From Candidatus Velamenicoccus archaeovorus (GTDB lineage Bacteria; Omnitrophota; Gorgyraeia; Velamenicoccales; Velamenicoccaceae), in contig NZ_CP019384.1 in NCBI RefSeq assembly GCF_004102945.1, positions 420,001 to 452,000 of the forward strand: 32,000 nucleotides of DNA, written 5' to 3'. This document shows positions 7,739 through 28,303 of this stretch, one piece after another. Within the stretch, counting starts at the first letter, position 1. The number at the start of each line of letters is the position of its first letter. Position numbers and translations under genes: made by a program. The notes beneath the pieces were generated by a model, which saw nothing but the letters and a program-made list of their open reading frames with translations, was not told the origin of the DNA and searched no databases.

Positions 7739-7743
7739 CGAAA

Positions 7744-7904
7744 TTAAGAAATAAACGTCACTCCTCGCCTAAACACTCGAAAATTTATTGCCAGGGTTAG
7801 GCCGTCGGCCTGGCGCAGCCGGCCAGGACGGCCATCCGGCGGAAATTTCCTGCGTAGCCGCAGGGTTGATTTTGTAAGGTAAGAACCTTGGTATAGACAA
7901 AATC
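7744..7904 (+). repeat. Modular hairpin repeat, copy 1 (L module, long GC-rich hairpin, terminal hairpin; no 45-nt units)
   Basis: TTAAGAAATAAACGTCACTCCTCGCCTAAACACTCG aligns with the L modules at 9006, 16490 and 25547. It has an internal GC-rich hairpin (GGCCGTC...GACGGCC) and a terminal stem GATTTTGT (7868-7875) / ACAAAATC (7897-7904). Confidence 0.7.
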
Positions 7905-7917
7905 AAGGAGGTTATGT

Positions 7918-8328
7918 ATGTCTTTAGATATTATTCGACAGATGATCTTTGAGGCCGGGATGGGATACCTGGCGACATGCGATGCAGACCAGCCGCGGGT
8001 GAGGGCGATGATGCCTGTTATGGGGGATGACGGCAGATTGCTGGCGGCGACGTTTCCAGCTACAAAGAAGATCGGCCAAATCGCCAAGAACCCTAAGGTC
8101 GAGGTTTGTTTTGTCGATAGGAAGCTCAGCCATTGCCGCATAGAAGGCAAGGCCTCTGTCAGCCAGGAGCAGGCATTGAAAGAAGAATTGTGGAATAAGC
8201 AGATGATGCTCAGGCAGTTTTTTTCAGGGCCCGAAGATCCGGCCTTCATCCTGATCGTCATTGTGCCTTCCAGGATCTCCTTGATGAACATCGGAGATAA
8301 GGGGTATACGGAAGTCCCTTTAGCATAA
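7918..8328 (+). CDS. Pyridoxamine 5'-phosphate oxidase-like (general stress protein 26-like) FMN-binding protein
   Basis: 136 aa. GYLATCDADQPRVRAMMPV, KKIGQIAKNPKVEVCF and the overall size fit the PNPOx-like split-barrel family. A strong SD (AAGGAGG) lies 7 nt upstream. Confidence 0.6.
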   Translation: MSLDIIRQMIFEAGMGYLATCDADQPRVRAMMPVMGDDGRLLAATFPATKKIGQIAKNPKVEVCFVDRKLSHCRIEGKASVSQEQALKEELWNKQMMLRQFFSGPEDPAFILIVIVPSRISLMNIGDKGYTEVPLA

Positions 8329-8350
8329 TTTCAAGAAGCGGATAACGAAG

Positions 8351-8722
8351 ATGAAACACAAGATGCGGCATGGGGTAATATGTCGTGCCTGCGGTTTTGG
8401 GCGTTGTTGCCGTGACGGCGTTGAGGTTGATCTGTTCGAGGCGGCGCGGATCCTAAAACAGCTCCGGAATCGACCATTGGGTCTGGCCAAACCGTGGTTC
8501 CGTTATCTTCGCGCCGACAAGAGATCTCCATCCGGGTTTGTCTTTTCGACGATCGTCAGGGACAAGAGGTGCGTTTTTCAAGACAAGAATATGCGCTGCA
8601 GGATTTATCCGATCCGGCCCCGTTACTGCCGGGAATTTCCCCTGGAGGACGGCCGAGTGGCGCCTTATTATCATCTGCTTTGTCATCACGCCCCGGGCCG
8701 CAGGCATAAAAGGAATCCATGA
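8351..8722 (+). CDS. YkgJ-family (UPF0153) cysteine-cluster protein
   Basis: Has the N-terminal CRACGFGRCCRDG (CxxCGxxxCC) motif and a later C-rich segment (CVFQDKNMRCRIYPIRPRYCREFP), characteristic of YkgJ zinc/iron-chelating proteins. Confidence 0.65.
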   Translation: MKHKMRHGVICRACGFGRCCRDGVEVDLFEAARILKQLRNRPLGLAKPWFRYLRADKRSPSGFVFSTIVRDKRCVFQDKNMRCRIYPIRPRYCREFPLEDGRVAPYYHLLCHHAPGRRHKRNP

Positions 8723-8979
8723 AGACGATAGCCTTGATCGCCGCCGTCGTTCTTCCTCTGTGGAACATTCCTTTGATTATCAAGATCCATAAGAGGCGAT
8801 CGGCCGAGGATTTCAGCCGTTCTTGGGCATTGGGTGTATGGATATGCCTGATCGCCATGCTGCCTGCAGCTTTGCGGTCGGATGACATCGTTTTTAAGAC
8901 CTACAGTATCGTGAATTTTATCCTTTTTTCCTTGGTCGTCGGCTGGGTGTTGAGGTTTAAGCGGAAAGCGCATCATTGA
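8719..8979 (+). CDS. Small 3-TM membrane protein, SemiSWEET/PQ-loop-like
   Basis: 86 aa with three hydrophobic helices. After TM1 there is an IPLIIKIHKRRSAEDFS segment, which has the PQ-loop-like position and basic stretch but with PQ replaced by PL. The start overlaps the upstream stop (ATGA). Confidence 0.45.
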   Translation: MKTIALIAAVVLPLWNIPLIIKIHKRRSAEDFSRSWALGVWICLIAMLPAALRSDDIVFKTYSIVNFILFSLVVGWVLRFKRKAHH

Positions 8980-8980
8980 A

Positions 8981-8999
8981 GAAGTTTCTAAAAGGAGCA
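8981..8999 (+). repeat. Left copy of a perfect 19-bp direct repeat (GAAGTTTCTAAAAGGAGCA) flanking repeat copy 2
   Basis: Identical 19-mer at 9171-9189. Similarity continues imperfectly for ~9 more nt (GAATGAAGG vs AAATTAATG). Confidence 0.9.
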
Positions 9000-9195
9000 G
9001 AATGAAGGAATAAACGTTTATCCCTCGTCTCAACGCTTGTCAATTTTTCCAGGAGGGCCTGGCTATCTTCGCTAGCCGGCCACTCGGAAAAATTGTCTGC
9101 GCAGACTCGGGATTAACCCAGAAAGGGTAGACCTCCGCATTCCACATAGCGGAGGGCCTAATTTTGCAAGGAAGTTTCTAAAAGGAGCAAAATTA
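9000..9195 (+). repeat. Modular hairpin repeat, copy 2 (L module, long hairpin, one 45-nt unit, terminal hairpin abutting the pfkB-family ATG)
   Basis: L module starts at 9006. The long hairpin base is CAATTTTTCC (9041-9050) / GGAAAAATTG (9086-9095). The palindrome GTCTGCGCAGAC follows. The 45-nt unit is 9115-9159. The terminal stem is TAATTTTGC (9159-9167) / GCAAAATTA (9187-9195). Confidence 0.8.
9171..9189 (+). repeat. Right copy of the perfect 19-bp direct repeat; contains the SD of the kinase gene
   Basis: GAAGTTTCTAAAAGGAGCA is identical to 8981-8999. Confidence 0.9.
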
Positions 9196-10098
9196 ATGAG
9201 CATACTTGTCTTGGGGACAACAGCTTTGGATACGGTTCGTACGCCTTCAGGGGCCCGCCGGGAAATGCTGGGAGGGTCTGCCGTGCATTTTTCCATGGGG
9301 GCGCACCATTTTACGCAAGTGAACCTTGTCGCCATCGTCGGCTCCGATTTTCCCAAGAAACATATGGAATTCCTGCGCCGCAAGGGCGTGGTCCTGACGT
9401 CTTTGACCGTCGAAAAAGGGCGGACGTTCCGCTGGGAGGGAGAGTATCGCGGCGATTTAAACGCCGCCCTGACGTTGAGCACCGAGCTGGGCGTGCTTTC
9501 ATTTTTCAAGCCGAGGATCGCCGAGCACCAGAGGTTGATCGATAATATCTTTTTGGCGAATGTCGACCCTGACATCCAGAGGCACCTGTTATCGCACATG
9601 CATTCTCCTCGCTTGGTGGGCCTCGACAGCATGAACTATTGGATCGATCACAAAAAGAGGTCTCTTGTCCGGCTGCTCAAAGATGTTCACATCTTTGTCG
9701 CCAACGACGCGGAAGCCCGCAGCCTCTCGGGAGAGACGAACTTGTTTGCGGCGGCCAAGACGCTGCGTCGCATGGGCGCGCCCATCGTCGTCATCAAAAA
9801 GGGGGAGCATGGCGTCATCGTTTTCTGCAAGGATTTTCTTTATTGCCTTCCGGCTTATCCGGTGGAGAAAGTCATAGATCCGACGGGGGCGGGGGATACC
9901 TTTGCGGGGGGGTTCATGGGATATCTGGCGAGCCGCCGCAAGATCGACGCGGTCGCCGTCAAAAAAGCGATCACCTACGGCACGATCATGGCGTCGTTCA
10001 ATGTGGAAGGCTTCGGCGTGGAGCGCAGCTGCCGGGTGACGGGCCGGGACATCGCCCGCAGGTATCATCATTTAAAAATGATCGCTTCGGTGTGTTGA
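9196..10098 (+). CDS. PfkB/ribokinase-family carbohydrate (or nucleoside) kinase
   Basis: 300 aa with the C-terminal DPTGAGDTFAGGFMGYLA signature (PfkB motif 2) and an N-terminal LGGSAVHFS region. Confidence 0.8.
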   Translation: MSILVLGTTALDTVRTPSGARREMLGGSAVHFSMGAHHFTQVNLVAIVGSDFPKKHMEFLRRKGVVLTSLTVEKGRTFRWEGEYRGDLNAALTLSTELGVLSFFKPRIAEHQRLIDNIFLANVDPDIQRHLLSHMHSPRLVGLDSMNYWIDHKKRSLVRLLKDVHIFVANDAEARSLSGETNLFAAAKTLRRMGAPIVVIKKGEHGVIVFCKDFLYCLPAYPVEKVIDPTGAGDTFAGGFMGYLASRRKIDAVAVKKAITYGTIMASFNVEGFGVERSCRVTGRDIARRYHHLKMIASVC

Positions 10099-10107
10099 CC
10101 GGAATAT

Positions 10108-10578
10108 ATGAACTCGAGAGGAGGTGATCCGGCTCCGATGAAGAAACAAGCGATGGAACTGAGTGTCCAGGACAGGGAATCTCTTTACAAAAGATATCTT
10201 TTCTGGTTATATAAGACCATCAGGGAAGATGCCGATCGCATTGACAGGAAATTTACGCAATTGGTGTTGGATGAACGGATTGCGGCTTTTCTGGAACGGG
10301 ACGCGGCGTCGTTGGACAAAGACTTGCGTTGCGGCGTGGGGCCTTTTGTCGAAGAGTGGAAAACATATATCGCGCAAAAGGCCGATGACGCCCGCAAGCT
10401 GAAGTTTTCGGAAGCCGGGTCTTTGAAGTTCGAGTATGTTTTCTTGCGTCTGAAGCTGAAAGCGGTCGAGCGGCTTATCGTCGAGCGCCTTGGCCGCAGG
10501 CACCTCAAGGAGTTCAGGCGGCGCCTGGAAGAGGTCGCCATGCAGGGGATCCTGCAGGACCATTCGGGACGAAGATGA
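10108..10578 (+). CDS. Hypothetical protein (helical, charged)
   Basis: 156-aa ORF co-directional with and tightly spaced to its neighbours. I recognise no motif. The start is uncertain: ATG 10138 is preceded by GAGAGGAGG. Confidence 0.45.
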   Translation: MNSRGGDPAPMKKQAMELSVQDRESLYKRYLFWLYKTIREDADRIDRKFTQLVLDERIAAFLERDAASLDKDLRCGVGPFVEEWKTYIAQKADDARKLKFSEAGSLKFEYVFLRLKLKAVERLIVERLGRRHLKEFRRRLEEVAMQGILQDHSGRR

Positions 10579-10611
10579 ACTGTTTGTTCCAAAGAGCCGT
10601 ATGAGAGGCAG

Positions 10612-11277
10612 ATGAAGCGCCTATTTCTTTTTTCCCTTGCAGTTTTTCTTGCGACATGCGGCGGATGCGCCCATGGCCGGCCGAAACAGAGCCAGGCGCA
10701 GGCTTATGAGGCCCTGGCTCAGAAGTTCGAGCTGGCCAAGAAAGAGAACGCAGAGCTCAAGAAAGAATTGACGCTGTACCGCAACCTCAAGCACCTGGAT
10801 GTCAGACAATTCGTCCAGGGGGCGGATATCTTTGAAAAGGCCCTGGCCGATGACATCGCCGCCGGGAATATCTGGCTGAGGGTCTCCGACCGCGGACTGG
10901 TGATCACGATCGCCTCCGAAAAACTGTTTATCTCCGGCAGCGCCAGCTTGAGCGACGAGGGGAAAGCGTTCCTGGACAAAATATTCAGCGTCGCGGCCGG
11001 GCATTTCCCGGAGAATTATATTTATGTGGAAGGTCATACGGATAACCAGTCTCTGGCGGTCTTCGAGTGGAAATCGGACTGGGATTTTTCTTTTGCGCGC
11101 GCCTTGGCCGTTGTCGAATATCTTAAACAAAAAGGCGTTGATCCCTTGCGCCTGTCGGCGTCGGGATTCGGCCAGTACCGGCCCAGGGCGTCCAATGAGA
11201 CCAAGGAGGGGCGCCGCCTGAACCGCCGCATCGAAATCATCATCTCGCCGCAAAAAGTGGGGCATCTCGTCGAGTGA
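10612..11277 (+). CDS. OmpA/MotB-domain lipoprotein
   Basis: Has a signal peptide with lipobox LATC, a coiled-coil segment, and a C-terminal OmpA-like domain (VEGHTDN...NRRIEI). Confidence 0.8.
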   Translation: MKRLFLFSLAVFLATCGGCAHGRPKQSQAQAYEALAQKFELAKKENAELKKELTLYRNLKHLDVRQFVQGADIFEKALADDIAAGNIWLRVSDRGLVITIASEKLFISGSASLSDEGKAFLDKIFSVAAGHFPENYIYVEGHTDNQSLAVFEWKSDWDFSFARALAVVEYLKQKGVDPLRLSASGFGQYRPRASNETKEGRRLNRRIEIIISPQKVGHLVE

Positions 11278-11322
11278 AAACTTTCTTTTGCAGAGGCCGG
11301 CAGGGAAATAGAGGGTAAAACG

Positions 11323-11793
11323 ATGGAAGATGTTTTTTTGACGCAGAAAGGCTATGAGCAGCTCCGCGAGGAGTTGGAATTTTTGAAGACCACGAAGCGC
11401 CGCGAGATCTCTCAAGCGATCGCCAAGGCGCGCGCGATGGGAGATTTGTCTGAGAATGCCGAATACGACGCCGCTAAGGAGGCGCAGGGCCATCTGGAAA
11501 AGCGCATCGTCGAACTCGAGGACAAGCTGTCGCGCGCCAGGATCATCGAGAATGAGAACATCCCGACGGACAAGGTCTATATCGGCGCCTGCGTCAAATT
11601 GCGGGACGAGGATACCAAAGAAGAAAGCGCCTACACGCTAGTCTCTCCGGCCGAGGCGGATTATACACAGAACAAGCTGTCGATCGAATCGCCTATCGGT
11701 AAGGCCTTGTTGGGCCGCAAGGCGGGTGAGACGGTCGAGATACAGGTCCCGGCGGGAATTTTGAAATACAAGATCATTGAGATTTCCCGGTGA
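11323..11793 (+). CDS. greA: Transcription elongation factor GreA
   Basis: 156 aa. LTQKGYEQLREELEFLK, GDLSENAEYDAAKEAQ and the C-terminal SPIGKALLGRKAGETVEI motif are canonical for GreA. Confidence 0.92.
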   Translation: MEDVFLTQKGYEQLREELEFLKTTKRREISQAIAKARAMGDLSENAEYDAAKEAQGHLEKRIVELEDKLSRARIIENENIPTDKVYIGACVKLRDEDTKEESAYTLVSPAEADYTQNKLSIESPIGKALLGRKAGETVEIQVPAGILKYKIIEISR

Positions 11794-11803
11794 AGAGAAA
11801 GGC

Positions 11804-12289: not shown

Positions 12290-12329
12290 GGGGCGGTATT
12301 TCATAAGAGGGCCGGCGAGGGGAGGGGCT

Positions 12330-12572
12330 ATGGCGGCAGGAGCAAAGAAGAGTTGCAAGACATGCGGCAAGAGCGTCAGGGATCACGGCCACTTGTGCGC
12401 ACCGCTGAAGGCCAAAGACGAGACATGCAATTGGTGCGGTTCGCTGATCATGGATGCGCGGCATATGTGCGACGCCAAGTTAAAGAGGTTGAGCTACATC
12501 TGTAATTCGTGCGGCCGGTTGGCGTTGGCGCCTCAGTATCTTTGTCGGCCCCGTAAGATCAAGAAGGTGTAG
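12330..12572 (+). CDS. Small Cys-rich protein with three C-x2-C-x10-C repeats
   Basis: ATG at 12330 is preceded by GAGGGGAGGGG. The 80-aa product has three ~24-aa repeats: CKTCGKSVRDHGHLC, CNWCGSLIMDARHMC and CNSCGRLALAPQYLC. The track's longer 12177 start has no support. Confidence 0.55.
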   Translation: MAAGAKKSCKTCGKSVRDHGHLCAPLKAKDETCNWCGSLIMDARHMCDAKLKRLSYICNSCGRLALAPQYLCRPRKIKKV

Positions 12573-12595
12573 GTTTTAGAGGCGGTTTTTGGAGG

Positions 12596-13669
12596 TCAAG
12601 AGCGGGGAAGTTCAAGAGGCATGCGGGAAGGCGAGAGCTTTTCAATGACGGAGCCCAGCGCCTTTCGGTGTGCCTTTTTCATTTTCAGTTCGTCGCAGAG
12701 GCGCATGGCTTTTTTCTGGAGTTTTTTCATCCTTTCCAGGCACGAAGCATAGGATCCGCTGGAGACGATCAGGCGGCGCAGGACGTCGAGATCGGCGAGC
12801 GTCTTGTCGTCCTTTTCGAGGATACGGCGCAGTTGGGCGCGGGATTTCCCGTAGAGGCCGTTATAGGCCTTGAAGACCAGAAGGGTTTTTTTGGATTCAT
12901 TGAGGTCTGTCAGGACGGGTTTTCCGATGACGTCCTGCGTGGCGAAAAGGTCAAGGATGTCGTCGTAGATCTGGAAGGCCTGCCCTGCGGCCAGGCCGAG
13001 TTGAGAGAGTTTTTTCTGTTGTGCCGCCGGCGCACCTGCGAGGATCGCGCCCATGAGCAACGGACACTCAAAGGTGTAGCGCGCCGTCTTGAGGGTGTAG
13101 TTTAAAAGGATGCGGCCCTGCGTCAAATCATCGATGTCCTGGTGGCCGGAGACGATATCGATGAATTCTCCTGCGCCCGTGTAGGCCGCTGTTTCGGCGA
13201 GTTTTTTCAAGGTTTCTTCTTTGCGTCGGCAGTCTTCCTTGACCGACGTCAGCGAGGCGATGGCCAAAGCGAAGAGGATATCTCCGGCCACGATCGCCAG
13301 GTCCTTGCCGATCCTGGCTTTGTCGGGAAGGTGAAGTTTATGGTCGAACATTTTGTGGAGTGTCGGTTTGCCTCGCCGCAGACTGGAATTGTCGATGACG
13401 TCGTCATGGATCAGCATATAATCGTGCAGGAGCTCAATCGAGGCGGCAGAAGTAAAGAGGGAATCATCGTCGCGTGCGGGTCTTGCGGCATATCCTTTGT
13501 AGCTTAAGACAAAGAGGAGGGGGCGGATGCGCTTGCCTTTGCGCAGGACGAATTCCCTCGTGAAGGCGAAAAGATGGTCCGAGACCTGGCGTAGCCGGTA
13601 GTGCCGGTTGGCTTCATCCAGTACCCGCCGGATCCCTGCATTGATTTTGTTTAAGTATCCTTCTATCAT
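12596..13669 (-). CDS. Polyprenyl diphosphate synthase (trans-isoprenyl diphosphate synthase family)
   Basis: Carries the first aspartate-rich motif LIHDDVIDNS (DDxxD) and the second, FQIYDDILD. 357 aa. Chain length is not deducible. Confidence 0.88.
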   Translation of the reverse strand: MIEGYLNKINAGIRRVLDEANRHYRLRQVSDHLFAFTREFVLRKGKRIRPLLFVLSYKGYAARPARDDDSLFTSAASIELLHDYMLIHDDVIDNSSLRRGKPTLHKMFDHKLHLPDKARIGKDLAIVAGDILFALAIASLTSVKEDCRRKEETLKKLAETAAYTGAGEFIDIVSGHQDIDDLTQGRILLNYTLKTARYTFECPLLMGAILAGAPAAQQKKLSQLGLAAGQAFQIYDDILDLFATQDVIGKPVLTDLNESKKTLLVFKAYNGLYGKSRAQLRRILEKDDKTLADLDVLRRLIVSSGSYASCLERMKKLQKKAMRLCDELKMKKAHRKALGSVIEKLSPSRMPLELPRS

Positions 13670-13678
13670 TGATTTAGC

Positions 13679-13705
13679 CCGTTAGAGAACGAAGTTCTCT
13701 AACGG
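13679..13705. other. Perfect 11-bp hairpin next to the polyprenyl synthase start codon
   Basis: CCGTTAGAGAA-cgaag-TTCTCTAACGG lies 10 nt from the - strand ATG (13669), where an SD would be expected. Function unknown. Confidence 0.5.
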
Positions 13706-14050
13706 GGTTTACTAGCGTGCACGAACCAGCATAGACGCCTTATCCCCTTAGAGACAGGTCCAGTTAGATCTAGCTGGACAAGAAACATTTTGAACAGACT
13801 TAACTAATTCTTGCTGAAGCGGTTCCGTGATTTTCACCACAAATCATGGACTATTCTGATTGAATGCAGTCCTGTGTTTGGCTTCTCTGACGGGATTCAA
13901 TGTAGCACAAAAGGCCGGCGGCCGCAATACTCTTGCAAAGCTTTTGGAAGTATAATATCATATAGTTTACCCCGTTATAGAAAGCCGCGTCTTTGGGTGG
14001 GATTATTTCAAGGCAACTGTACGGAGTAAAAGCATTGTGTCCGTTTTTTC

Positions 14051-14077
14051 GTTGGAAAGGATAGAGTCCTTTCCAAC
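14051..14077. other. Perfect 11-bp hairpin in the long AT-rich divergent intergenic region
   Basis: GTTGGAAAGGA-tagag-TCCTTTCCAAC is followed immediately by a small AGGG-ttta-CCCT hairpin. No U-run follows on either strand, so it is not a canonical terminator. Confidence 0.5.
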
Positions 14078-14158
14078 AGGGTTTACCCTGTGTTGGCCCT
14101 GAATACATAACGTTTGGGGCCGGCAGGATTTCATGACCCGGGTACCTGGGAGTTCTCC

Positions 14159-15295: not shown

Positions 15296-15380
15296 AGGCT
15301 TCTTTTTGTTCAAACGCCCGTAATTTTTTCTTTCGGTTGGATCCGTCGGCTCTCGGAAGATTTAAAACGTGACGGGCAGA

Positions 15381-16457: not shown

Positions 16458-16489
16458 GAAATTTGCAGGGGAAAACGGAAAGGGCAAGG

Positions 16490-16749
16490 TTAAGGAATAA
16501 ATCTTGCCCCTTGCGTTAACGCTTGAAAATTTTTCCAGGGCGAGCCGGAAAAATTTTCGGCGCACGCTCGGGGTTAACCCAGAAAGGGTAGGTCTCCGCA
16601 TTCCACATAGAGGAGGACCTAACCCAGAAAGGGTAGGTCTCCGCATGCCGCAGAAAGCGGCATACTGGCTCTTCCGATTGAGCCAGGTCATCCACATAGC
16701 GGAGGGCCTAATTTTGCGATGAAATAACCTAAAAAAAGGGGCAAAATTA
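16490..16749 (+). repeat. Modular hairpin repeat, copy 3 (L module, minimal long hairpin, one 45-nt unit plus one expanded unit, terminal hairpin abutting the murI ATG)
   Basis: The L module is TTAAGGAATAAATCTTGCCCCTTGCGTTAACGCTTG. A perfect 12-bp stem pairs GAAAATTTTTCC (16525-16536) with GGAAAAATTTTC (16547-16558). The plain unit is 16576-16620. The expanded unit 16621-16709 has nested hairpins ATGCCGC/GCGGCAT and CTGGCTC/GAGCCAG. The terminal stem is TAATTTTGC (16709-16717) / GCAAAATTA (16741-16749). Confidence 0.85.
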
Positions 16750-17547
16750 ATGGACAAAGCGATCGGCGTATTTGATTCCGGCATCGGCGGCTTGACCGTC
16801 GTCAAAGAGCTCCTCAAACTTTTGCCTCACGAGGACATCGTTTATTTCGGCGATACCGCCCGCGTGCCTTACGGCGTCAAGTCCCGCGAGACGATCATCA
16901 AGTTTTCCCTGGAGAACACGCTCTTTCTCCTGCAGAAGAATGTCAAGGTGATCGTGGTCGCCTGCAATACGTCGTCGAGTCTGGCGCTTCCCGTGATCCG
17001 CCAGCATTTCAAGATCCCGATCATCGGCGTGATCCTCCCCGGCGCCAAAGAGGCGGTTTACGCCACCAAGAACGGCAGGGTCGGCGTCATCGGCACGCGC
17101 GCCACGATCAACAGCGGCGCCTATGAGCAGGAGATCAAGCGCCTGGACAACAAGATCAAGGTCTTCAGCCAGGCCTGCCCCATGTTTGTGCCGATCGTCG
17201 AGGAGGACTGGGTGAATGACGATATCGCCCTGCATGTGGCGCATAAGTATCTGGCGCCTTTAAGGGGGAAGAATATCGATACCCTGATTTTGGGGTGCAC
17301 CCACTACCCGCTGCTCAAGCCTAAGATCCATGCGATCATGGGCCGCGGCGTCCGCCTGATCGATTCCGCCCAGCAGGTGGCGCAGGAGGTGCGCCAGGTC
17401 TTGATCCAGGAGGGGCTTTTGAGCAAGAACAAAAAGAAATCGACGCGCGAATATTTCGTCAGCGATGAGGTGGCGATCTTTGCCAATGTCGCCAGCCGAT
17501 TCCTGGGCGAAAAACTCAAGGACGTCAAGAAAGCAGGAGTTTGTTGA
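16750..17547 (+). CDS. murI: Glutamate racemase
   Basis: GVFDSGIGGLTV, VVACNTSS and LILGCTHYPLL are canonical MurI motifs with both catalytic Cys contexts. Confidence 0.93.
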   Translation: MDKAIGVFDSGIGGLTVVKELLKLLPHEDIVYFGDTARVPYGVKSRETIIKFSLENTLFLLQKNVKVIVVACNTSSSLALPVIRQHFKIPIIGVILPGAKEAVYATKNGRVGVIGTRATINSGAYEQEIKRLDNKIKVFSQACPMFVPIVEEDWVNDDIALHVAHKYLAPLRGKNIDTLILGCTHYPLLKPKIHAIMGRGVRLIDSAQQVAQEVRQVLIQEGLLSKNKKKSTREYFVSDEVAIFANVASRFLGEKLKDVKKAGVC

Positions 17548-17558
17548 GAGAACAAACC

Positions 17559-19254: not shown

Positions 19255-19283
19255 CTATAGGACTTCGTCCATAGGAAGGAAAC

Positions 19284-19676: not shown

Positions 19677-20512
19677 GAAAGATTTCATCCCAGGCGATCC
19701 GTGAATGCGTCAGTCGTCTTGTCTTGGAGGCCAATGTCCGCCTTAGGGGCGATGTGCGCCGCGCGATTTCGGCTGCGGCGGCCAGAGAAACCTCGGCCCG
19801 GGGCCGCAGGATCCTGCAGGAGCTCCTTGAAAATGCGAAGGTCGCCCGGCACGACAACCTGGCCTTATGTCAGGATACCGGCCTGCCTGTCGTTTTCGTC
19901 GAGATCGGCCCCGATGTGGATGTGAGCGGTGTTAACGTGACAGGGGCCGTGCAGGAAGGCGTGGCCCGAGGGTATCGAGAGGGTTTCTTCAGGGATTCTA
20001 TCGTCGCAGACCCTTTGCGTCGGGGAAAACCGGGTTTCGGGCCGTGTATCGTGCATACGTCGTTTGTCCGTAGCAAAGGGTTAAAGGTGACGCTCTTGCC
20101 TAAAGGGTTCGGTTGCGAGAACAAGACGCAGCTCAAGATGATGCCGCCCACGGCCGATGCAAAAGACATAGAGGATTTCATCGTTGAGGCTGTCAAAGAT
20201 ACCGGACCGGACGCTTGCCCGCCTTATATCGTCGGCGTCGGCATCGGAGGTAGCTCGGATTACGCCTGTCAGTTGGCCAAGGAAGCGCTTTTGCGGCCCA
20301 TTGACAAGAGGAGCCGCGCCCCGCATGTGGCGCGCATGGAAAAAGAACTCATCCAAAGGCTCAACCGTCTGGGCATCGGCCCGATGGGGCTTGGTGGTAA
20401 GACGACGGTCCTGGGCGTCAATATCTTGTTGTATCCCACTCATATCGCAGGTCTCCCCGTATGTGTCAATATCAGCTGTCATGTCTTAAGGAGCGCCAGT
20501 GAAATCCTTTAG
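19673..20512 (+). CDS. Fe-S hydro-lyase alpha subunit (class I fumarate hydratase / tartrate dehydratase family)
   Basis: 279 aa with LCQDTGLPVVFVEIG and GVGIGGSSD motifs of the class I fumarase N-terminal domain. The stop TAG is at 20510-20512. Confidence 0.85.
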   Translation: MRKISSQAIRECVSRLVLEANVRLRGDVRRAISAAAARETSARGRRILQELLENAKVARHDNLALCQDTGLPVVFVEIGPDVDVSGVNVTGAVQEGVARGYREGFFRDSIVADPLRRGKPGFGPCIVHTSFVRSKGLKVTLLPKGFGCENKTQLKMMPPTADAKDIEDFIVEAVKDTGPDACPPYIVGVGIGGSSDYACQLAKEALLRPIDKRSRAPHVARMEKELIQRLNRLGIGPMGLGGKTTVLGVNILLYPTHIAGLPVCVNISCHVLRSASEIL

Positions 20513-20732
20513 CCCAGAAAGGGCAGGTCTCCGCATTCCACATAGAGGAGGACCTAACCCAGAAAGGGTAGGTCTCCGCATGCCACATAGAGGAGGACCT
20601 AACCCAGAAAGGGTAGGTCTCCGCATGCCGCAGAAAGCGGCACCCCGCTTTAATAGGATAAGCGGGTGCGTCCCGCTGGACGGCATACTGGCTCATCCGA
20701 TTGAGCCAGGTAATCCGCATAGCGGAGGGCCT
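20511..20732 (+). repeat. Modular hairpin repeat, copy 4 (three 45-nt-type units only, the last one expanded), filling the fumarase alpha/beta gap
   Basis: Units at 20511-20555 and 20556-20600 differ by 1-2 nt from 16576-16620. The expanded unit 20601-20732 contains extra nested hairpins (CACCCCGCTT...AAGCGGGTG; CTGGCTC...GAGCCAG). Confidence 0.85.
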
Positions 20733-20735
20733 AAC

Positions 20736-21278: not shown

Positions 21279-21991
21279 ATCGTTCCGATGGCCGTTCGAC
21301 GGATATGTTGAGAAAGGTGAAGGTGACGCGTAAATTCCTCAAGCACGCCGAAGGGTCGTGCTTGATCGAGGTCGGCGAGACGAAGGTCATTTGTTCGGCA
21401 AGCGTCGAAGAGACAGTACCGCTTTTTTTGAAGGGTAAGAATGAAGGGTGGGTCACGGCCGAGTACGGAATGCTGCCGCGTTCCTGCGAGACGCGCGTCA
21501 ACCGCGAGAAGCAGAGATCCGGCCGCACGTTTGAGATCCAGCGGCTGGTCGGCAGGTCTCTGCGGACGGCCGTGGCCATGCGCGAACTGGGGGAGAGGAC
21601 CATCACCCTCGACTGCGACGTCATCCAGGCCGATGGCGGCACGAGGACCGCGTCCATCACGGGGAGCTTTATCGCGCTGGTCGATTGCCTCGACGTCATG
21701 AGAAAGCGCAAGATGATCCGGCGCATCCCGATCACGGATTTCGTCGCCGCGACCAGCGTCGGCATCGTCGACGGGGCCACCCTGTTGGATCTGACATACG
21801 AAGAGGATTCGAAAGCGGAAGTCGACATGAACGTCGTCATGGTCTCCAGCGGCAGCTTCATCGAGATCCAGGGCACGGCGGAACGCAAGCCGTTTTCCAA
21901 GGAACAGATGGATGTGCTCCTGGGGCTGGCCCAAAAAGGCATTACGCGGCTTATCGAGATGCAGAAAGACCTGCTGAAAGACGTGCAATAA
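21275..21991 (+). CDS. rph: Ribonuclease PH
   Basis: 238 aa with [44 protein letters not shown] and [18 protein letters not shown], which are canonical for RNase PH. Confidence 0.93.
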
Positions 21992-22010
21992 CGTGAAACT
22001 TCCCGCCCGG

Positions 22011-22616
22011 ATGATAGAGCTTGTGGTGGCGACGAAAAACAAAAAAAAGCTCCAGGAGATCAGGGAGCTTTTGAAAGATTTGCCGCTGCGCGTGACGTCC
22101 CTTGAAGATTATCCGGATGCGCCCCGCATCGTCGAAGACGGCAGGACTTTCGAGCAGAACGCCATCAAAAAGGCGGCCACGATCGCCCTTTGCACCCGCA
22201 AGCTGGTCCTGGGCGAGGATTCCGGTCTTGAAGTCAAGGCGTTGCATAACCGTCCCGGTGTCTATTCCGCACGCTACGCCGGCGAGGACGCCACCGACCT
22301 CAAAAATAACCGCAGGCTTCTGCTAGAACTCAAAGGTGTGCCGTTGAAGAAGAGGGGTGGGCGTTACCGCTGCGCCGTGGCCTTGGCCGACGGTCAGGGG
22401 CTGATCGGCGTGGTCAGCGGCTCCTGTTCCGGCACGATCGCGCTTGAGCCGAAAGGGACGTTCGGGTTCGGTTATGACCCTTTGTTTTTGATCGGGAAGT
22501 TCGGCAAGACCTTCGCCCAGCTTGGGCCGGAGGTCAAGCATGCGATGAGCCATCGTTTCCGCGCCCTTAAAAAAGCCCGTCGGTTGATCCTGGAATACCT
22601 TTCACGGAATGCCTAA
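22011..22616 (+). CDS. rdgB: dITP/XTP pyrophosphatase (RdgB/HAM1 family)
   Basis: LVVATKNKKKLQEI, EDSGLEV, FGYDPLF and SHR motifs are present, and it forms the classic rph-rdgB pair. The start is ATG 22011 (MIELVVATKN) or GTG 21993. Confidence 0.88.
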   Translation: MIELVVATKNKKKLQEIRELLKDLPLRVTSLEDYPDAPRIVEDGRTFEQNAIKKAATIALCTRKLVLGEDSGLEVKALHNRPGVYSARYAGEDATDLKNNRRLLLELKGVPLKKRGGRYRCAVALADGQGLIGVVSGSCSGTIALEPKGTFGFGYDPLFLIGKFGKTFAQLGPEVKHAMSHRFRALKKARRLILEYLSRNA

Positions 22617-22825
22617 TTCCGAAATCCGAAGACGAAATAAATCCAAATTTGTCCAATGACCCTGCGCGGCCTAAAGCTCCGCCCTTTAGGGCGCAAGAGT
22701 GTTGTGGCTGCTTAGAGGTACCCGGAACATTTAGGCCAGGGAATATGGGTTGACTAAAAAATTTGTCATTGAGGTATTCGGTATTTATTCGGCATTAGAT
22801 ATCAGGAATTCGGAATTTGTGTATT

Positions 22826-25546
22826 TTAAGGCGCGATGTTGGAGAGGAAGTCTTGAATTTTATTGAAGATGTTTTTGGTGATGGGTTGCAGTTTGTATTG
22901 CGGTTTTTGGATGTTGCCCGTGATATTGATCGCCGTCATGCCGCCTGCGGTATTGATGACATCCCCGATAGGGGATTGTCCGGGGCCTGTCGTTGGGACC
23001 TGAGTGACCGCCATCAGATCCAGCGTCCCGTCGAAGCCGATCCTTCCTTTGACCAGTAGTTCCACGTCTTGTCCCATCAGATCCAGATTTTCCGTCATCA
23101 ACCAGCCGTCTTTGATCGAGAAATCTCCCGTCGCATGGCTGAATGAGAGAGTATCGAAGCGCGGCATGAAGATGAAACTTCCAAGTCCCTTGAGCGGGTT
23201 GAATTCCCAGATATTGCCGTCCGTCACGACGATCTGCCCCTGGCCGCTGATCGATTTCGGGTCCGTCCCTGCGCCATCGGCAACGGCCTGGAGGCTGAGC
23301 TTGCCGTAAAAAGTCTTGCCTTTCAAGTCCGGGATGTCGTTTTTGAGGAGGTTCAGGTCGAGGTCTTTGATCTCGCCCGTCACTGAATAGCGGGGCCTGG
23401 GCGTGTTTAAGATCAGCCGGCCTTTGATGACGGCCGGGCCGTTGTAGGCCGTAAAGTTCAGAAAATTGATAAGGCCCTGCCCGGCTGTCTGCGTATAGTT
23501 GAGCGCGATGTCTTTGATGGTGAATCCTTTGACGTGTACGGCCTTGCTGGTGATGTTGGAGTTGATCTTCCAGGATGTCCACTCTTTGGCCGGGCCTGCG
23601 GCATTGAGCTGGATATGGCAGAGGCCGTTGAGGTCGACGGGTTTTTCAAAGACGGCCTTCTGCGGCACCCACTCTTTGAGGTCTGTGATATTGATGTCGC
23701 CGCCGGCATTCAAATGAAAGGCGGCCGTAGCCAGGTCGTACTGTCCGGAGCCTTCCAGTTGTGAATCCTTGACGGAGATTTTTAAAGAAGGGATGTCGAG
23801 AGCATTGTTTGTTTTGTTGATGTGGGCCTCCAGCATCATGTCTTGCGCTGCCGCCTTCACGACACAGGAAGATGTTTGGAAGCCCTTCCATGTGCCGTCC
23901 AGGTCAAAGGCCCGCCCCAGAAGAGAGAGGCCTTCCAGGTGCCATGCGATTCTTTCTTCCTGCGTATTGAAGCTCACGCGTCCGCCCGAAGCTTTGAGCG
24001 GACTGGCGGCGTCTAAGACGATGACGGGTTCCTGCAGAAGGATGTCTCCCTCAAAGGATGTTTTTTTATGGGCGAGGTCGGCGAGGATATGGATGGTCGC
24101 GTCAGCCTCGCCGGAGAGTTCCGTAACGGGCCCGCCATAATATTCTTTGATGACAGGCAGGAGTGTCTGGAGTCCTATTTTTCCCGAGGCCTTGAGATTG
24201 AGAGCGTTATCCTTGAGCGAGCCGCTGGCGGTGATCGTCGTTCCCAGAACTTCCGCGCTCATCTGGGTCAGGCTGATATTCTTTTCTTCAAAAGATGCCT
24301 GAAGGGATGCGATTTTTATTTGTCCGACATAAGGCAGGCCGCTGAGTGTACCGGAGGTGACGTCCAGACTGCCTTTGTATTTCAGCGGGATATTTTTGAC
24401 ATCTGTCGTGTCGGGCCGCGGGATATCGATTTGCGCATGGACAGAGGCATTGATGCCGGCTGCTTTGATGTCTCCGCTTTGGCCTCGCAGGTCTGCGACG
24501 GTAAAGTCGGAGATAATGCCGATGACAGCCTGACCGCAGGTGATGTCGGCATGCGCGCCGGTCATGCGGGCCTCTGCCTGGAGGGGCGCTGTTGAGCGCA
24601 GGGCCGCCTGGACGACATCCAGTTGTCCTTTGCCTTGCCATGCCGACCAGTTGTCCGTCGGGACGGAGAAGGAAAAGTTTGCATTGATCTCGGCGTCGCT
24701 CACGGCGATATCCTGGTATACCGCATTGATCTTTTTGGAGCGCAGCTGGATCTGGGACGAAAAGGTTTTTTGTTCCTGGAGGGTAAAACTCGCCTCGAGC
24801 GTATCAACGAACCCTTGCGTCGGCGCATAGGGCGCGCCTGGGAGGTAATCCAGGTAACGCGCCATATCGAGATCGCGCAGGACGATGCGGCCGCTCAAGT
24901 TTTTTGTGCCGTAGGCATAGTCTGCGTCTATGGAGATGTATGTTGTCGCATCGCCGCGTATGATCTCGGTTGATGCGCTAAGGATAGCTTTGTTAAATCC
25001 CAGGCGCGCTTCCGCTTGTTTAAGGCGGAGACGGGCTGTTGCCGCAGGTTCGATGGTCTCATCTGTCCAGAGGATCGCACTGTCTTTGAGATTGACCTGC
25101 CTGACGATGACGCTTGGCATGGAAGCCGTCGTGTCCGTTTTTTTCGGTTTTATCTTCTCCAGGAGATAGGCGATGGTGAGTGTGCCGTCTTTGCGGCGGC
25201 CGATGGTCAGCGTCGCCTCCCTGACGGACAAAGAGGGGATGATGATCTTTTTTTCCTTGAAGGACGGCAGGATAAGGAATCCGGCAGAGAGCTCTTTGAT
25301 CTCGGCCAGGCGCTGTTGAGGCGTGTCTTTGTCGTAAATGACGAGGTCTTTGAGCACCAGGCCTTTCAGGAGATTGAGGCGCAGGCCCCCAAGGGTCACT
25401 TTGGAAGCTGTGAAATCCGAAAGCCCCTGGACGATCTTCTGGCGCACGACTGAAGGCAAAAGGACCTTGTTGATGTAATAAAATCCCCCTGCCAAAAAGG
25501 CAATGAAGACAAGACAAAGAATAAGTATTATGGAGCGTTTTTTCAT
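22826..25546 (-). CDS. Large AsmA/TamB-like envelope protein
   Basis: 906 aa with an N-terminal anchor (IILILCLVFIAFLAGGFYYI). The body is long, repetitive and beta-rich, and the C-terminus (GTLDLMAVTQVP...) resembles AsmA-like proteins. It is the only long - strand gene in this half of the window. Confidence 0.6.
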   Translation of the reverse strand: MKKRSIILILCLVFIAFLAGGFYYINKVLLPSVVRQKIVQGLSDFTASKVTLGGLRLNLLKGLVLKDLVIYDKDTPQQRLAEIKELSAGFLILPSFKEKKIIIPSLSVREATLTIGRRKDGTLTIAYLLEKIKPKKTDTTASMPSVIVRQVNLKDSAILWTDETIEPAATARLRLKQAEARLGFNKAILSASTEIIRGDATTYISIDADYAYGTKNLSGRIVLRDLDMARYLDYLPGAPYAPTQGFVDTLEASFTLQEQKTFSSQIQLRSKKINAVYQDIAVSDAEINANFSFSVPTDNWSAWQGKGQLDVVQAALRSTAPLQAEARMTGAHADITCGQAVIGIISDFTVADLRGQSGDIKAAGINASVHAQIDIPRPDTTDVKNIPLKYKGSLDVTSGTLSGLPYVGQIKIASLQASFEEKNISLTQMSAEVLGTTITASGSLKDNALNLKASGKIGLQTLLPVIKEYYGGPVTELSGEADATIHILADLAHKKTSFEGDILLQEPVIVLDAASPLKASGGRVSFNTQEERIAWHLEGLSLLGRAFDLDGTWKGFQTSSCVVKAAAQDMMLEAHINKTNNALDIPSLKISVKDSQLEGSGQYDLATAAFHLNAGGDINITDLKEWVPQKAVFEKPVDLNGLCHIQLNAAGPAKEWTSWKINSNITSKAVHVKGFTIKDIALNYTQTAGQGLINFLNFTAYNGPAVIKGRLILNTPRPRYSVTGEIKDLDLNLLKNDIPDLKGKTFYGKLSLQAVADGAGTDPKSISGQGQIVVTDGNIWEFNPLKGLGSFIFMPRFDTLSFSHATGDFSIKDGWLMTENLDLMGQDVELLVKGRIGFDGTLDLMAVTQVPTTGPGQSPIGDVINTAGGMTAINITGNIQKPQYKLQPITKNIFNKIQDFLSNIAP

Positions 25547-25712
25547 AAGGAATTAACGTTGGCTCCTCGCCTAAACGCTTGTTCATTTTGCTCACAAACG
25601 CCCTGGTCCCGCCGGAGGACGGGCCAGAGGCGTTCTCAAAATGAACTGGCGCAGGCTTCGGAGTTAATCCGCCAGAGGCGGATTAAAAAGCTATTATAGC
25701 ATACCTTTTTGA
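25547..25712 (+). repeat. Modular hairpin repeat, copy 5 (L module, long hairpin, variant small hairpin, terminal hairpin)
   Basis: AAGGAATTAACGTTGGCTCCTCGCCTAAACGCTTG begins right beside the - strand ATG (25546). The long hairpin pairs TTCATTTTG...CAAAATGAA around AACGCCCTGGTCCCG...CGGGCCAGAGGCGTT. TAATCCGC-cagag-GCGGATTA replaces the ACCC-AGAAA-GGGT hairpin of the other copies. Confidence 0.75.
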
Positions 25713-25748: not shown

Positions 25749-25857
25749 GAACCCCACCTTGAAATGACGGTATCCGGGGAGTAGCTGAGTACCCTTATGT
25801 CTTATACAGCGAAGTCCGCCAAAGATTTAGTGGCGGACTCAGCTTGCAAAGGTATAG

Positions 25858-26100: not shown

Positions 26101-26104
26101 TTTT

Positions 26105-28183: not shown

Positions 28184-28303
28184 TTATTGTTTTAGGAGAA
28201 CTGAGGTTCGGTAACATAAAAAGAAAGGAGATGATGGTTCTATTTTTGTCATAAAAATTAGAATTATCGTTTCCTTTTTTTTGTTCAAAGGGGAGTGAGC
28301 TTT

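Follow-up and report, generated by a model that had tools for sequence, protein, structure and literature searches.

What are the hairpin-rich sequences that recur between unrelated genes of Candidatus Velamenicoccus archaeovorus, and are they RNA elements or inserted DNA? The question is raised by a 32,000-nt stretch of contig NZ_CP019384.1 (hereafter the window), in which a preliminary description reported five co-oriented copies of a modular, multi-hairpin repeat (7744-7904, 9000-9195, 16490-16749, 20511-20732 and 25547-25712). All five sites are genuine members of one repeat family, new and lineage-specific, whose small nested hairpins lie between neighbouring genes. They share modules far more often than chance predicts: in the window the 5' part of the 45-nt unit is matched six times (0.00 expected), its 3' part six times (0.06 expected) and the “L module” four times (0.04 expected), and every match lies on the + strand. 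The flanking genes had been labelled correctly, with Pfam matches to XdhC, PNPOx, PfkB, Amidase_3, Asp_Glu_race, Fumerase, Fumerase_C, YhdP/DUF748 and GIY-YIG; the 86-aa ORF called “SemiSWEET-like” has no Pfam match. The repeat modules match no family in Rfam, and the preliminary description's rejection of a ligand riboswitch stands.

The composites follow one order, in which hairpin A comes first, then 0-3 tandem B units and last C or C', located beside the Shine-Dalgarno (SD) sequence and start codon. Module A is a hairpin of ~105-195 nt with long inverted arms and (T)TAAGGAATAAACGTT on its 5' side. It had been divided into an L module, a long hairpin and a linker, but the L module pairs with the “linker,” so that the three constitute one long imperfect hairpin; the perfect 12-bp stem reported at 16525-16536 / 16547-16558 is correct. 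Module B is a 45-nt two-hairpin unit present in 0-4 tandem copies, without terminal inverted repeats and with YTAA or YTAG flanks (TTAA, CTAA or CTAG on both sides). B units are arranged head to tail, not as inverted pairs. The large B palindrome (~31 nt, with a 1-nt bulge) carries GTAG on its 5' side (GGGTAGGCC...); in other subfamilies this tag is GCAG or ACAG, and its T, A and G are base-paired, not free. Modules D and E are inserts of ~42-45 nt that share the two-hairpin plan of B and are nested within B or A. C and C' are short hairpins abutting AAGGAG(G), which is followed by 5-8 nt and ATG. The TAATCCGCC-AGAG-GCGGATTA hairpin of copy 5, previously considered a substitute for ACCC-AGAAA-GGGT, is a separate module (C) that in related genomes normally lies 3' of the 45-nt unit.

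Table 1. Modules of the five copies and adjoining gene signals, in window coordinates.
Site	Feature	Position	Strand	Remark
Copy 1	5' leader (ATTAAGAAATAAACGT) and outer-stem 5' arm of A (CACTCCTCGCCTAAACACTCG)	7743-7779	+	
Copy 1	A/T-based apical hairpin of A	7780-7849	+	
Copy 1	Small hairpin CCTGCG-TAGC-CGCAGG	7849-7866	+	
Copy 1	C'-type terminal hairpin (GATTTTGT...ACAAAATC)	7868-7904	+	
Copy 1	SD AAGGAGG	7905-7911	+	Directly after C'; PNPOx gene start 7918
Upstream of copy 2	Truncated C' (loop, 3' arm, AAGGA)	8981-9009	+	
Copy 2	Leader GAAGGAATAAACGTT, hairpin A, TAA	9004-9116	+	
Copy 2	Single 45-nt B unit	9117-9161	+	CCC-AGAAA-GGG, T, AGACCTCCGC-loop-GCGGAGGGCCT, AA
Copy 2	C' hairpin (AATTTTGC...GCAAAATT)	9160-9198	+	
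Copy 3	Leader TTAAGGAATAAATCT, hairpin A, TAA	16490-16577	+	Hairpin A 16506-16574
Copy 3	B unit 1	16578-16622	+	
Copy 3	B unit 2 with nested 45-nt D insert	16623-16711	+	D at 16647-16691
Copy 3	C' hairpin (AATTTTGC...GCAAAATT)	16710-16752	+	Then murI start ATG 16750
Copy 4	Ancestral GTG start of fumarase beta	20499	+	SD AAGGAG upstream
Copy 4	Fumarase alpha stop TAG	20510-20512	+	Also 5' flank of first B unit
Copy 4	Three B units	20513-20557, 20558-20602, 20603-20734	+	
Copy 4	D insert in third B unit	~20627-20714	+	
Copy 4	E insert within D	~20643-20685	+	
Copy 5	138-nt insertion: leader GAATTAACGTT, hairpin A, hairpin C	25550-25687	+	
Copy 5	Hairpin A	25561-25664	+	
Copy 5	Hairpin C (TTAATCCGCC-AGAG-GCGGATTAA)	25664-25687	+	

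The five copies combine these modules differently. Copy 1 comprises L/A and C', lacks B and the outer-stem 3' arm of A, and has a leader and arm resembling the A modules of the related loci L001 and L003. Upstream of copy 2 lies a truncated C' module (compared with the C'-to-leader junctions in L004 and L028), which accounts for the 29-nt direct repeat 8981-9009 / 9171-9199. The hairpin A of copy 2 (9020-9113) consists of ATCCC/GGGAT, GTCT/AGAC and CGC/GCG pairings, an A/T-rich stem and a variable apex, and its C' includes the SD AAAGGAG within the loop and 3' arm, with the PfkB start ATG at 9196. The D insert of copy 3 combines GCCGC-AGAAA-GCGGC with CTGGCTC-TTCCGATT-GAGCCAG. Copy 4 contains only B units, without L or A, and its array sits within what was originally the 5' end of the fumarase beta ORF; the last 3' arm contains a GGAGG 7 nt upstream of the new ATG (20736). 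Copy 5 extends to 25687 and not to 25712, because 25688-25712 is native flank that is also found in strains without the element. It is not in the 5' region of a + strand transcript: it precedes a + strand promoter-like site and, on the - strand, lies 3 nt upstream of a gene's start codon, splitting the promoter-like box of that gene from this codon.

The family extends beyond the window to 19 stretches from three PVC-superphylum MAGs (labelled Omnitrophota/Omnitrophica in two cases and Planctomycetia in the third) and to 50 metagenome stretches. The best named matches of the window's MurI belong to Candidatus Omnitrophota (86% identity). In one MAG many contigs end within the repeat, as expected of a multi-copy element.

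Comparison of strains reveals how the elements arrived. Copy 5 is absent from the related strains L026 (~92% identical) and L061 (~86% identical), where the empty site CATAAG/AAGCTATT (insertion point at the slash) is intact. This is the only clean filled/empty pair; a target-site duplication is not unambiguous there, and the empty site best fits insertion without duplication. In two other pairs the whole stop-to-start spacer differs, meaning that these are not simple insertions. The syntenic relatives L072 and L074 contain no elements in 20 kb, and in L070 a single junction carries them. These more distant relatives have tight or overlapping junctions where copies 2, 3 and 4 lie in the window: a GTGA overlap before PfkB, amidase-TAA-AGGAAGATC-ATG-murI, and a fumarase beta GTG start 14 nt before the alpha stop. 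Module content also changes at occupied sites. The A interior at murI is swapped between strains, and the fumarase site has 3, 3 and ~1.5 B copies among the strains compared, of which only the window carries the E insert. L014 and L033 differ in the presence of B and D, and L015, L017 and L068 contain a B unit inside hairpin A (CAGCTAA/...CCTAA/AAATTT) that is uninterrupted in L004. The murI and fumarase junctions keep elements across strains of 86-94% identity.

The elements entered the genome by DNA insertion, and they gain and lose modules fast. They occupy TAA-containing stop-codon/SD junctions of co-directional genes, which in relatives are tight or overlapping. A mobile-DNA origin had appeared in the preliminary description only as a suggested search for RAYT/IS200 enzymes; presence/absence and module turnover between strains now point to inserted repeat DNA. 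The elements are probably small non-autonomous mosaic palindromic repeats, specific to one subclade of Candidatus Omnitrophota and REP/BIME-, BOX- or MIRU-like, and they behave like the mobile “mosaic” repeats of other bacteria, not like dedicated regulatory RNA.

The same synteny bears on the idea that the hairpins are attC-like sites at which an integron-like or other site-specific system recombines, with the intervening genes as cassettes. The elements are co-oriented, variable in length and located between unrelated genes, and conserved bases flank their variable centre; the GCCTAAAC of the L module is loosely like an attC inverse core site. The genes, however, are conserved housekeeping genes whose order is kept in relatives without elements, no integrase is present in the window, GCCT pairs with AGGC, and no GTTRRRY core site was noticed on reading the copies. 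Conserved synteny thus makes this reading extremely improbable.

With genes of the related loci called by a custom codon-usage caller (a few verified by eye), elements occur in 53 of 217 co-directional gaps and in none of 31 convergent or divergent gaps. Every A-containing composite runs in the direction of the flanking genes (33/33), and the spacing from the 3' end to the start codon is fixed. Of the 28 genes immediately following an element, 20 have a strong SD, vs. 34 of 327 other genes. The strict co-orientation claimed earlier holds only for A-containing composites: among B units, TAA-type units are mainly co-oriented (39 vs. 10 antisense), and TAG-type units, one subfamily, are mostly antisense (3 co-oriented vs. 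24). The restriction to co-directional gaps, the strict orientation of SD composites and the fixed start distance are unlike pure parasites and leave room for a selected function.

Structure-preserving changes, measured on alignments of distinct copies (mostly from related loci), affect every stem of A, B and C. In B 95% of cells are paired and 6 of 14 pairs changed on both sides, a value reached by none of 500 shuffles; the corresponding figures are 97% and 9 of 33 for A, and 99% and 5 of 9 for C. Mismatches are as often A.C as G.U (20 vs. 19 in one count, 4 vs. 3 in another), and the antisense fold is more stable than the sense fold in 26 of 30 A modules and 28 of 33 B units. Together with the location of copy 5 outside any sense transcript, this leaves selection on the sense RNA, and with it the earlier proposal of function at that level, not supported.

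These data also weigh on the view that the composites are primarily functional RNA, a portable leader cassette between cistrons that is co-transcribed with the operon and kept for its function, with A as a processing site (e.g., for RNase III), B and C as protective 5' hairpins and the terminal SD driving translation. Such a cassette would explain the almost exclusive use of co-directional gaps, the orientation and spacing of A-containing composites, the SD enrichment, the covariation and the persistence at murI and fumarase. Promoter or terminator consensus within the elements does not exceed chance, so transcription should read through. It is nevertheless unlikely, given the lack of a G.U excess, the stable antisense folds and the antisense subfamily. 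Moreover, copy 5 is a recent insertion outside any sense transcript and parts a promoter-like box from its start codon, close relatives have the same junctions without elements, and module content at a single site varies freely between strains.

For inserted mosaic repeats, the module ends suggest a route of growth. Modules would insert next to TAA or TAAG and, as each would itself end in TAA, chains would grow head to tail in a single orientation. The hairpins may be recognised as folded single-stranded DNA by a putative enzyme, for which a Y1/HUH-type transposase is the obvious candidate; Pfam detects no transposase or other mobilising enzyme in the window, and a crude scan of 522 kb, a weak test, yields no Y1/HUH motif. 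Within operons the elements would be co-transcribed as hairpin-rich spacers, presumably tolerated by the host because their 3' end carries or preserves a strong SD, and the family may have been partly co-opted as an SD donor. At the fumarase locus the SD-bearing end would provide the new start codon, while the frame of the old start would continue uninterrupted across the array. Effects on mRNA processing, stability or translation, if any, would be secondary and are hypothetical.

The flanks and arms could alternatively reflect classical MITEs, deletion derivatives of DDE-transposase insertion sequences, in which the long A arms are the terminal inverted repeats and YTAA/YTAG is a duplicated target likened to the YTAR of IS5-type elements. 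The sequences on both sides of B fit this idea, and B insertions inside and after A resemble TAA or CTAA duplication. B itself has no terminal inverted repeats, though, the empty site of copy 5 argues against duplication, the fetched DNA contains no related full-length insertion sequence, and strong orientation rules are unexpected for DDE-type elements; a MITE origin is accordingly very unlikely.

Among known systems, the GTAG-tagged, RAYT-associated REP/BIME repeats of Proteobacteria are similar in being short imperfect palindromes with covarying stems and a GTAG-like motif 5' of the palindrome (here B). They also form mosaic clusters with other motifs and are extragenic, lying mostly between unidirectional genes, inside operons and co-transcribed. 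B might even be a genuine REP with a GTAG tag; the composites would then be BIMEs, and a RAYT (TnpA-REP) encoded at another genomic locus would mobilise them. The size and bulge of the large palindrome fit, and REP families, including some of PVC bacteria, are described with degenerate GYAG tags, large loops and bulged, covarying stems, and as forming clusters; they typically lie between unidirectional genes (PMC3733652). This identity is quite unlikely, since the tag is variable and paired, and the units are head to tail instead of inverted, dimers of that kind being rare in REP families (PMC3733652). The 100-nt-plus A hairpin, the ~45-nt nested inserts and the SD-adjacent terminal hairpin have no REP counterpart, the 522 kb scanned contain no RAYT-like ORF (a weak test), and the host phylum differs (Omnitrophota).

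BOX elements of pneumococci/streptococci (boxA-boxB(n)-boxC) share the modular A-B(n)-C layout and a middle module whose copy number varies between strains, zero included; boxB is likewise 45 nt long. They fold strongly if transcribed and can extend operon transcripts. In BOX, A pairs with C, whereas the Omnitrophota A folds on itself; sequence was compared through the BOXA1R primer only, which the window does not contain. BOX and RUP elements show enrichment between convergent genes, with just ~61% of BOX following the coding strand (PMC3049150), in contrast to the Omnitrophota elements, which lie almost only in co-directional gaps and are, if A-containing, always co-oriented. Palindrome-associated elements (PATEs), derived from IS200/IS605, resemble the family in their hairpin-based ends without terminal inverted repeats, strand-specific orientation, insertion beside a short specific sequence without clear duplication (copy 5) and a module 3' end resembling the target, a rule drawn here from very few events; no TnpA was found for the Omnitrophota repeats, and 45-nt units are far below the described PATE size. 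Mycobacterial interspersed repetitive units (MIRUs) are reportedly tandem units of ~40-100 nt, intercistronic in operons, gene-oriented and variable in copy number, with ends overlapping the upstream stop codon and downstream start region; they are said to lack a hairpin mosaic, nesting and A or C modules, and are unrelated in sequence and host. Correia, ERIC and Rickettsia palindromic elements are also small and transcript-borne, and can provide expression signals or lie in coding regions. Their sequences are unrelated, and the Omnitrophota repeats, which do not show the terminal-inverted-repeat/TA signature, supply an SD instead of a promoter.

As the preliminary description had proposed, the five repeat sites of the window are built from a shared set of modules; the match counts are far above chance, and every match is on the + strand. 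The 5′ part of the 45-nt B unit (ACCCAGAAAGGGTAGGTCTCCGCAT, at most 3 mismatches) matches the window 6 times (0.00 expected), its 3′ part 6 times (0.06 expected) and the 5′ L module 4 times (0.04 expected), and a repeat finder run on the window recovers the same repeat families. In related loci the canonical composite consists of a leader, (T)TAAGGAATAAACGTT, located 5′ of the hairpin A (basic length about 107 nt), followed by TAA, zero to four B units, a short terminal hairpin (C or C′), AAGGAG(G), 5-8 nt and ATG. Each B unit reads CCC-AGAAA-GGG, T, AGRYCTCCGC-loop-GCGGAGGRYCT, AA; its large hairpin spans about 31 nt, and the window holds 6 such units. The C hairpin is AATTCCGCC-AGAG-GGCGGAATT, and the alternative C′ pairs AATTTTGC with GCAAAATT across about 20 nt. 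A D insert (about 45 nt) can lie inside B and repeats its two-hairpin plan (GCCGC-AGAAA-GCGGC plus CTGGCTC-WTCCGATT-GAGCCAG), and E, seen in copy 4 of the window, is nested within D. A B variant also sits within the A hairpin in three related stretches (L015, L017, L068); a fourth, L004, has an uninterrupted A. Copy 4 contains B units only, and in copy 1 both B and the 3′ arm of A's outer stem are missing.

This arrangement changes how two of the parts are to be read. The L module, the long hairpin and the linker had been described as separate modules, but folding pairs L with the linker, so that the three form a single long imperfect hairpin, A. The paired segments differ on both sides among copies (GUCU/AGAC, GCGU/ACGC, GCCU/AGGC), and the perfect 12-bp stem reported for copy 3 is correct on reading the sequence. 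The copy 5 hairpin TAATCCGCC-AGAG-GCGGATTA, taken earlier for a replacement of the small hairpin, is module C instead, as the canonical composite of the related loci indicates. The structure-preserving changes already noticed among the copies extend to the stems of A, B and C, all of which covary: 95% of the cells are paired in B, 97% in A and 99% in C, and the pairs changed on both sides number 6 of 14, 9 of 33 and 5 of 9, respectively. None of 500 shuffles scored as high for any of the three modules, and slid-partner controls collapse for all of them alike.

Positions of the repeat copies and of other features in the window and in related stretches (L-numbered; MAG or metagenome DNA)
Sequence	Position	Strand	Feature
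Window	~7743-7911	+	Copy 1, XdhC/PNPOx junction
Window	9004-9198	+	Copy 2, before PfkB
Window	16490-16752	+	Copy 3, amidase/murI junction
Window	16525-16536 / 16547-16558		Perfect 12-bp stem
Window	20513-20734	+	Copy 4, fumarase alpha/beta junction
Window	25550-25687	+	Copy 5, YhdP-like/GIY-YIG junction
L070	239-887		XdhC/PNPOx gap (648 nt), full of other repeats; holds two copies of a ~60-nt unit and a run of CCCTAAA-like heptamers
Window	13674-13712; ~13960-14090		MITE-like family GTTTACCCCGTTAGAGAA
L026	3′ end		MITE-like family GTTTACCCCGTTAGAGAA
L004	2740-2775		MITE-like family GTTTACCCCGTTAGAGAA
Window	22683-22729		47-nt stretch in the convergent gap after the Ham1-like gene
L006	7225-7271		Counterpart of the 47-nt stretch (91% identical), unrelated MAG contig
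Window	25777-26179		~320-nt insertion starting inside a tRNA gene
Window	25858-26100		GIY-YIG ORF within this insertion
Window	26105-26179		Variant tRNA carried by this insertion
L061	6560-6620		Uninterrupted tRNA at the insertion site
L026	~12300-12900		Different GIY-YIG-plus-tRNA cassette within the next tRNA gene
L026	~12330		Palindrome CCTGCCTGCCGGCAGGCAGG in a tRNA gene
Window	26196-26237 / 26290-26331		42-nt direct repeat
Window	27747-27992		Second GIY-YIG ORF
Window	28108-28181		tRNA near the second GIY-YIG ORF
Window	28295-30522		460-aa ORF, then D12-class methyltransferase
L055	11580-11740		Antisense 'type 3' composite

The family extends beyond the window. A scan of a genome collection with the B pattern returned 19 stretches from three PVC-superphylum MAGs, two labelled Omnitrophota/Omnitrophica and one Planctomycetia, and a metagenome scan returned 50; none of these records is the window itself. 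A B-profile search of the 522 kb of related DNA (8-20-kb stretches around the matches) gave 149 matches. The window is nevertheless omnitrophotal: its best named MurI matches come from Candidatus Omnitrophota MAGs at 86% identity, although the exact MurI protein has no database record. A tblastn of the window proteins against the 19 MAG stretches found no shared genes. Viral contigs scanned with the B and A patterns yielded 0 matches, and thus no sign of a phage origin. The elements, which the preliminary description could not assign to a named repeat or Rfam family, match none in Rfam: curated thresholds on the window return three tRNAs only, and a permissive E-value search with two elements gave only chance-level miRNA/sRNA matches. 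Pfam confirms the flanking gene labels (XdhC, PNPOx, PfkB, Amidase_3, Asp_Glu_race, Fumerase, Fumerase_C, YhdP/DUF748, GIY-YIG). These genes are unrelated in function. An Rfam cis-regulatory RNA is thus supported neither by a match nor by a common gene class, and the riboswitch reading, first judged unlikely, was rejected on gene context. A literature search on Omnitrophota repeats gave nothing relevant to such elements.

The elements are inserted DNA, their modules turn over rapidly, and the sites that they invade are TAA-containing stop/SD junctions. Two related stretches are syntenic with the window, L026 at 90-94% and L061 at 83-88% identity, and both lack copy 5, which is therefore a derived insertion of 138 nt; at the empty site TTTTTTCATAAG directly adjoins AAGCTATTATA. 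Copy 5 lies 3 nt upstream of the - strand YhdP-like start codon, between this codon and a TATAAT box, and upstream of the + strand promoter-like site; it lies outside any sense transcript. Its empty site is compatible with no duplication or with a 3-nt TAA duplication with one mismatch, and the B insertions are compatible with duplication of TAA or CTAA. More distant syntenic loci were reached through MurI homologues (L070, 86%; L072, 78%; L074, 75%). L072 and L074 contain 0 elements in 20 kb, and L070 has elements at the amidase/murI junction only, where two composites of a divergent A subtype stand in tandem; its XdhC/PNPOx gap, the place of copy 1 in the window, is occupied by other repeats.

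In these relatives the corresponding junctions, which represent the ancestral state, are tight. The GTG start of fumarase beta lies 14 nt before the alpha stop TAA, the amidase-murI spacer is TAA-AGGAAGATC-ATG, and PfkB and its upstream gene overlap in GTGA. In two filled/empty pairs the entire stop-to-start spacer differs. Between strains the interior of A has been exchanged at the murI site, the fumarase site carries 3, 3 and about 1.5 B units, with the E insert in the window only, and L014 and L033 differ in the presence or absence of B and D.

At the fumarase locus of the window lineage, the first base of the B array directly follows the stop codon of alpha, which reads TAG in the window, TAA in L026 and TGA in L061. 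The array ends in CCTAA, after which a new ATG for beta stands in place of an ancestral CAA codon, with the GGAGG of the last B arm 7 nt upstream. The ancestral beta SD and GTG are kept, and the frame from this GTG crosses the whole array without a stop. In the window this frame joins that of beta and adds 79 codons, whereas in L026 and L061 it stops at a TGA sharing bases with the new ATG (ATGA). A coding-compatible length of all nested modules, in multiples of 3 nt, was considered but rejected since the GTG frame joins beta in the window but not in L026 or L061; it is further weakened by module boundaries that are ambiguous by 1 nt.

Genes in the related loci were called from codon usage and spot-checked by eye, a longest-ORF caller having been dropped due to shadow ORFs. 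Of 217 co-directional gaps 40 nt or longer, 53 contain an element, compared with none of 31 convergent or divergent ones (p = 6e-4). All checked copies are extragenic, except for the B array, which lies in what was ancestrally the 5′ coding end of fumarase beta. The strict co-orientation with genes that had been claimed stands for the main-type A modules, all 33 distinct examples of which follow the flanking genes, but not for the B units: the TAA type is co-oriented in 39 cases and antisense in 10, and the TAG type in 3 and 24. Composites containing A often begin a few nucleotides from the upstream stop codon or directly after another composite. A strong SD at the composite end serves 20 of 28 downstream genes, compared with 34 of 327 other genes, and native short junctions are without a strong SD motif. 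The A arm contains a TTGACA without a -10 partner, so the reading of the element as a portable promoter was dropped; a consensus promoter/terminator scan of three element regions found nothing above shuffled expectation.

These gene-context statistics keep alive the main rival explanation, a selected intercistronic RNA cassette acting in processing, insulation or SD donation, which we nevertheless consider distinctly improbable. Across four module stems G.U pairs number 19 and A.C pairs 20; separate counts gave 3 and 4 in A, and 2 and 0 in C. The antisense RNA fold is stabler than the sense fold for 26 of the 30 A modules and 28 of the 33 B units compared. The lack of a strand signature, the insertion polymorphism, the antisense subfamily and the location of copy 5 argue that pairing is kept at the level of DNA, or on both strands symmetrically, and argue against selection on the sense RNA. 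Of the suggestion that the elements function as RNA or single-stranded DNA, the sense-RNA part is therefore not supported.

Other repeats and candidate mobile cassettes occur in the window and in related stretches. The GIY-YIG ORF next to copy 5 belongs to an insertion that leaves a 5′ tRNA fragment, GGGGAGTAGCT, and carries its own variant tRNA; with the second GIY-YIG ORF near another tRNA gene, these ORFs look like small mobile cassettes targeting tRNA genes. The 42-nt direct repeat (93% identical, 94 nt apart) lies between two tRNA genes, and L026 has related but rearranged sequence there. Beside tRNA 28108-28181 lie the 460-aa ORF, which has no Pfam match, and the D12-class N6-adenine DNA methyltransferase; the codon-usage model trained on DNA of this clade called neither, and the two may form an acquired island of restriction-modification-like type. 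A second family, MITE-like, bounded by terminal inverted repeats and unrelated to the first, is present as one solo palindrome and one longer copy, both in the polyprenyl synthetase/oxidoreductase divergent gap. The 20-nt perfect palindrome CCTGCCTGCCGGCAGGCAGG recurs in unrelated contexts (the A hairpins of L021 and L027, and a tRNA gene), which suggests another tiny mobile palindrome in these genomes. The 47-nt stretch after the Ham1-like gene, which includes the palindrome GCGCGGCCTAAAGCTCCGCCCTTTAGGGCGC, may be a terminator-like repeat common to both sequences. Antisense 'type 3' composites (L055, L008, L009, L013) are flanked by members of another palindromic family, ATAACTTACG...CGTAAGTTAT, of which two copies are often present.

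The repeats of the five sites probably represent a family of mosaic palindromic repeats that is non-autonomous and specific to this lineage. Their modules would insert beside TAA or TAAG and each itself end in TAA, so that chaining from head to tail, nesting and a fixed polarity would all be accounted for. A putative enzyme would recognise folded single-stranded DNA, and the host may tolerate or exploit the elements because their 3′ end keeps or brings a strong SD. A bolder and rather unlikely version is that B, D and E (about 42-45 nt, two hairpins) and the A-C composite are undescribed hairpin-guided mobile DNA, which inserts beside TAA stops and into the TAA-bearing ends or loops of its own relatives and builds nested head-to-tail chains co-opted genome-wide as strong-SD spacers, with fumarase as the case in which a new start was gained and the old frame left open. 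If true, this would mean that the Omnitrophota possess a new mobilising enzyme or mechanism and that translation initiation within their operons has been systematically rewired.

The Omnitrophota are uncultured, and to our knowledge their genome dynamics are almost unstudied. The family provides a defined marker, easy to search for, by which recent changes in the genomes of one subclade can be followed. Tight or overlapping operon junctions can evidently take in 140-330 nt of hairpin DNA with the genes preserved, and the invaded junctions are natural experiments on the rescue of downstream-gene translation, exemplified at fumarase by the new start codon, the element-borne SD and the upstream frame still running through the array. 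A dedicated mobilising enzyme, if it exists, would be a candidate for a new system of single-strand DNA transposition. A practical consequence is that metagenome assemblies of these organisms break at the repeats (in one MAG many contigs terminate within a repeat), which can also yield false ORFs.

Several known systems share individual traits with these elements. Integron attC sites were rejected: the window has no integrase, relatives without the hairpins keep the gene order, and the pairing partners are GCCT/AGGC rather than the R″/R′ core sites (RYYYAAC / GTTRRRY). Of the terminal inverted repeats of DDE-derived MITEs, A has a counterpart in its inverted arms and B none. PATEs of the IS200/IS605 type have subterminal hairpins but no terminal inverted repeats, insert without duplication 3′ of a specific short sequence and go with a Y1 transposase gene (TnpA) in the genome; the hairpin ends here, and an insertion behind TAA(G) with no clear duplication, would fit them, and TnpA was not found in the 522 kb. 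MIRUs are closest in context, being intercistronic, co-oriented and overlapping stop and start, but are not hairpin mosaics. REP/BIME elements are closest in kind, as short imperfect palindromes (about 20-40 nt) with many extragenic copies; however, they mostly form inverted pairs or alternating units, whereas tandem B units here are all head to tail. The REP tag is a conserved, unpaired GTAG (or CGTC), whereas here GTAG occurs in the TAA subfamily and GCAG or ACAG in others, and the B tag is paired, its T in the small hairpin and its AG in the large stem; degenerate GYAG tags do occur in known REP families (PMC3733652). REPs are also mobilised by a cognate RAYT whose gene the repeats flank; no RAYT was found here, and a crude Y1/HUH motif scan over all six translated frames of the 522 kb gave 0 candidates, a weak negative. 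BOX elements are closest in layout, with the A-B(n)-C order and variable B number seen in the window and related loci, a likeness of architecture only: the BOXA1R primer sequence is absent from the window at up to 3 mismatches, the host here belongs to the Omnitrophota and not to the streptococci, and the genomic distribution of BOX is unlike that of these elements (PMC3049150). The family can be filed under a known kind, the small interspersed mosaic repeats, within which its nested ~45-nt units, its SD-terminated, strictly oriented composites and its invasion of overlapping gene junctions are unusual.
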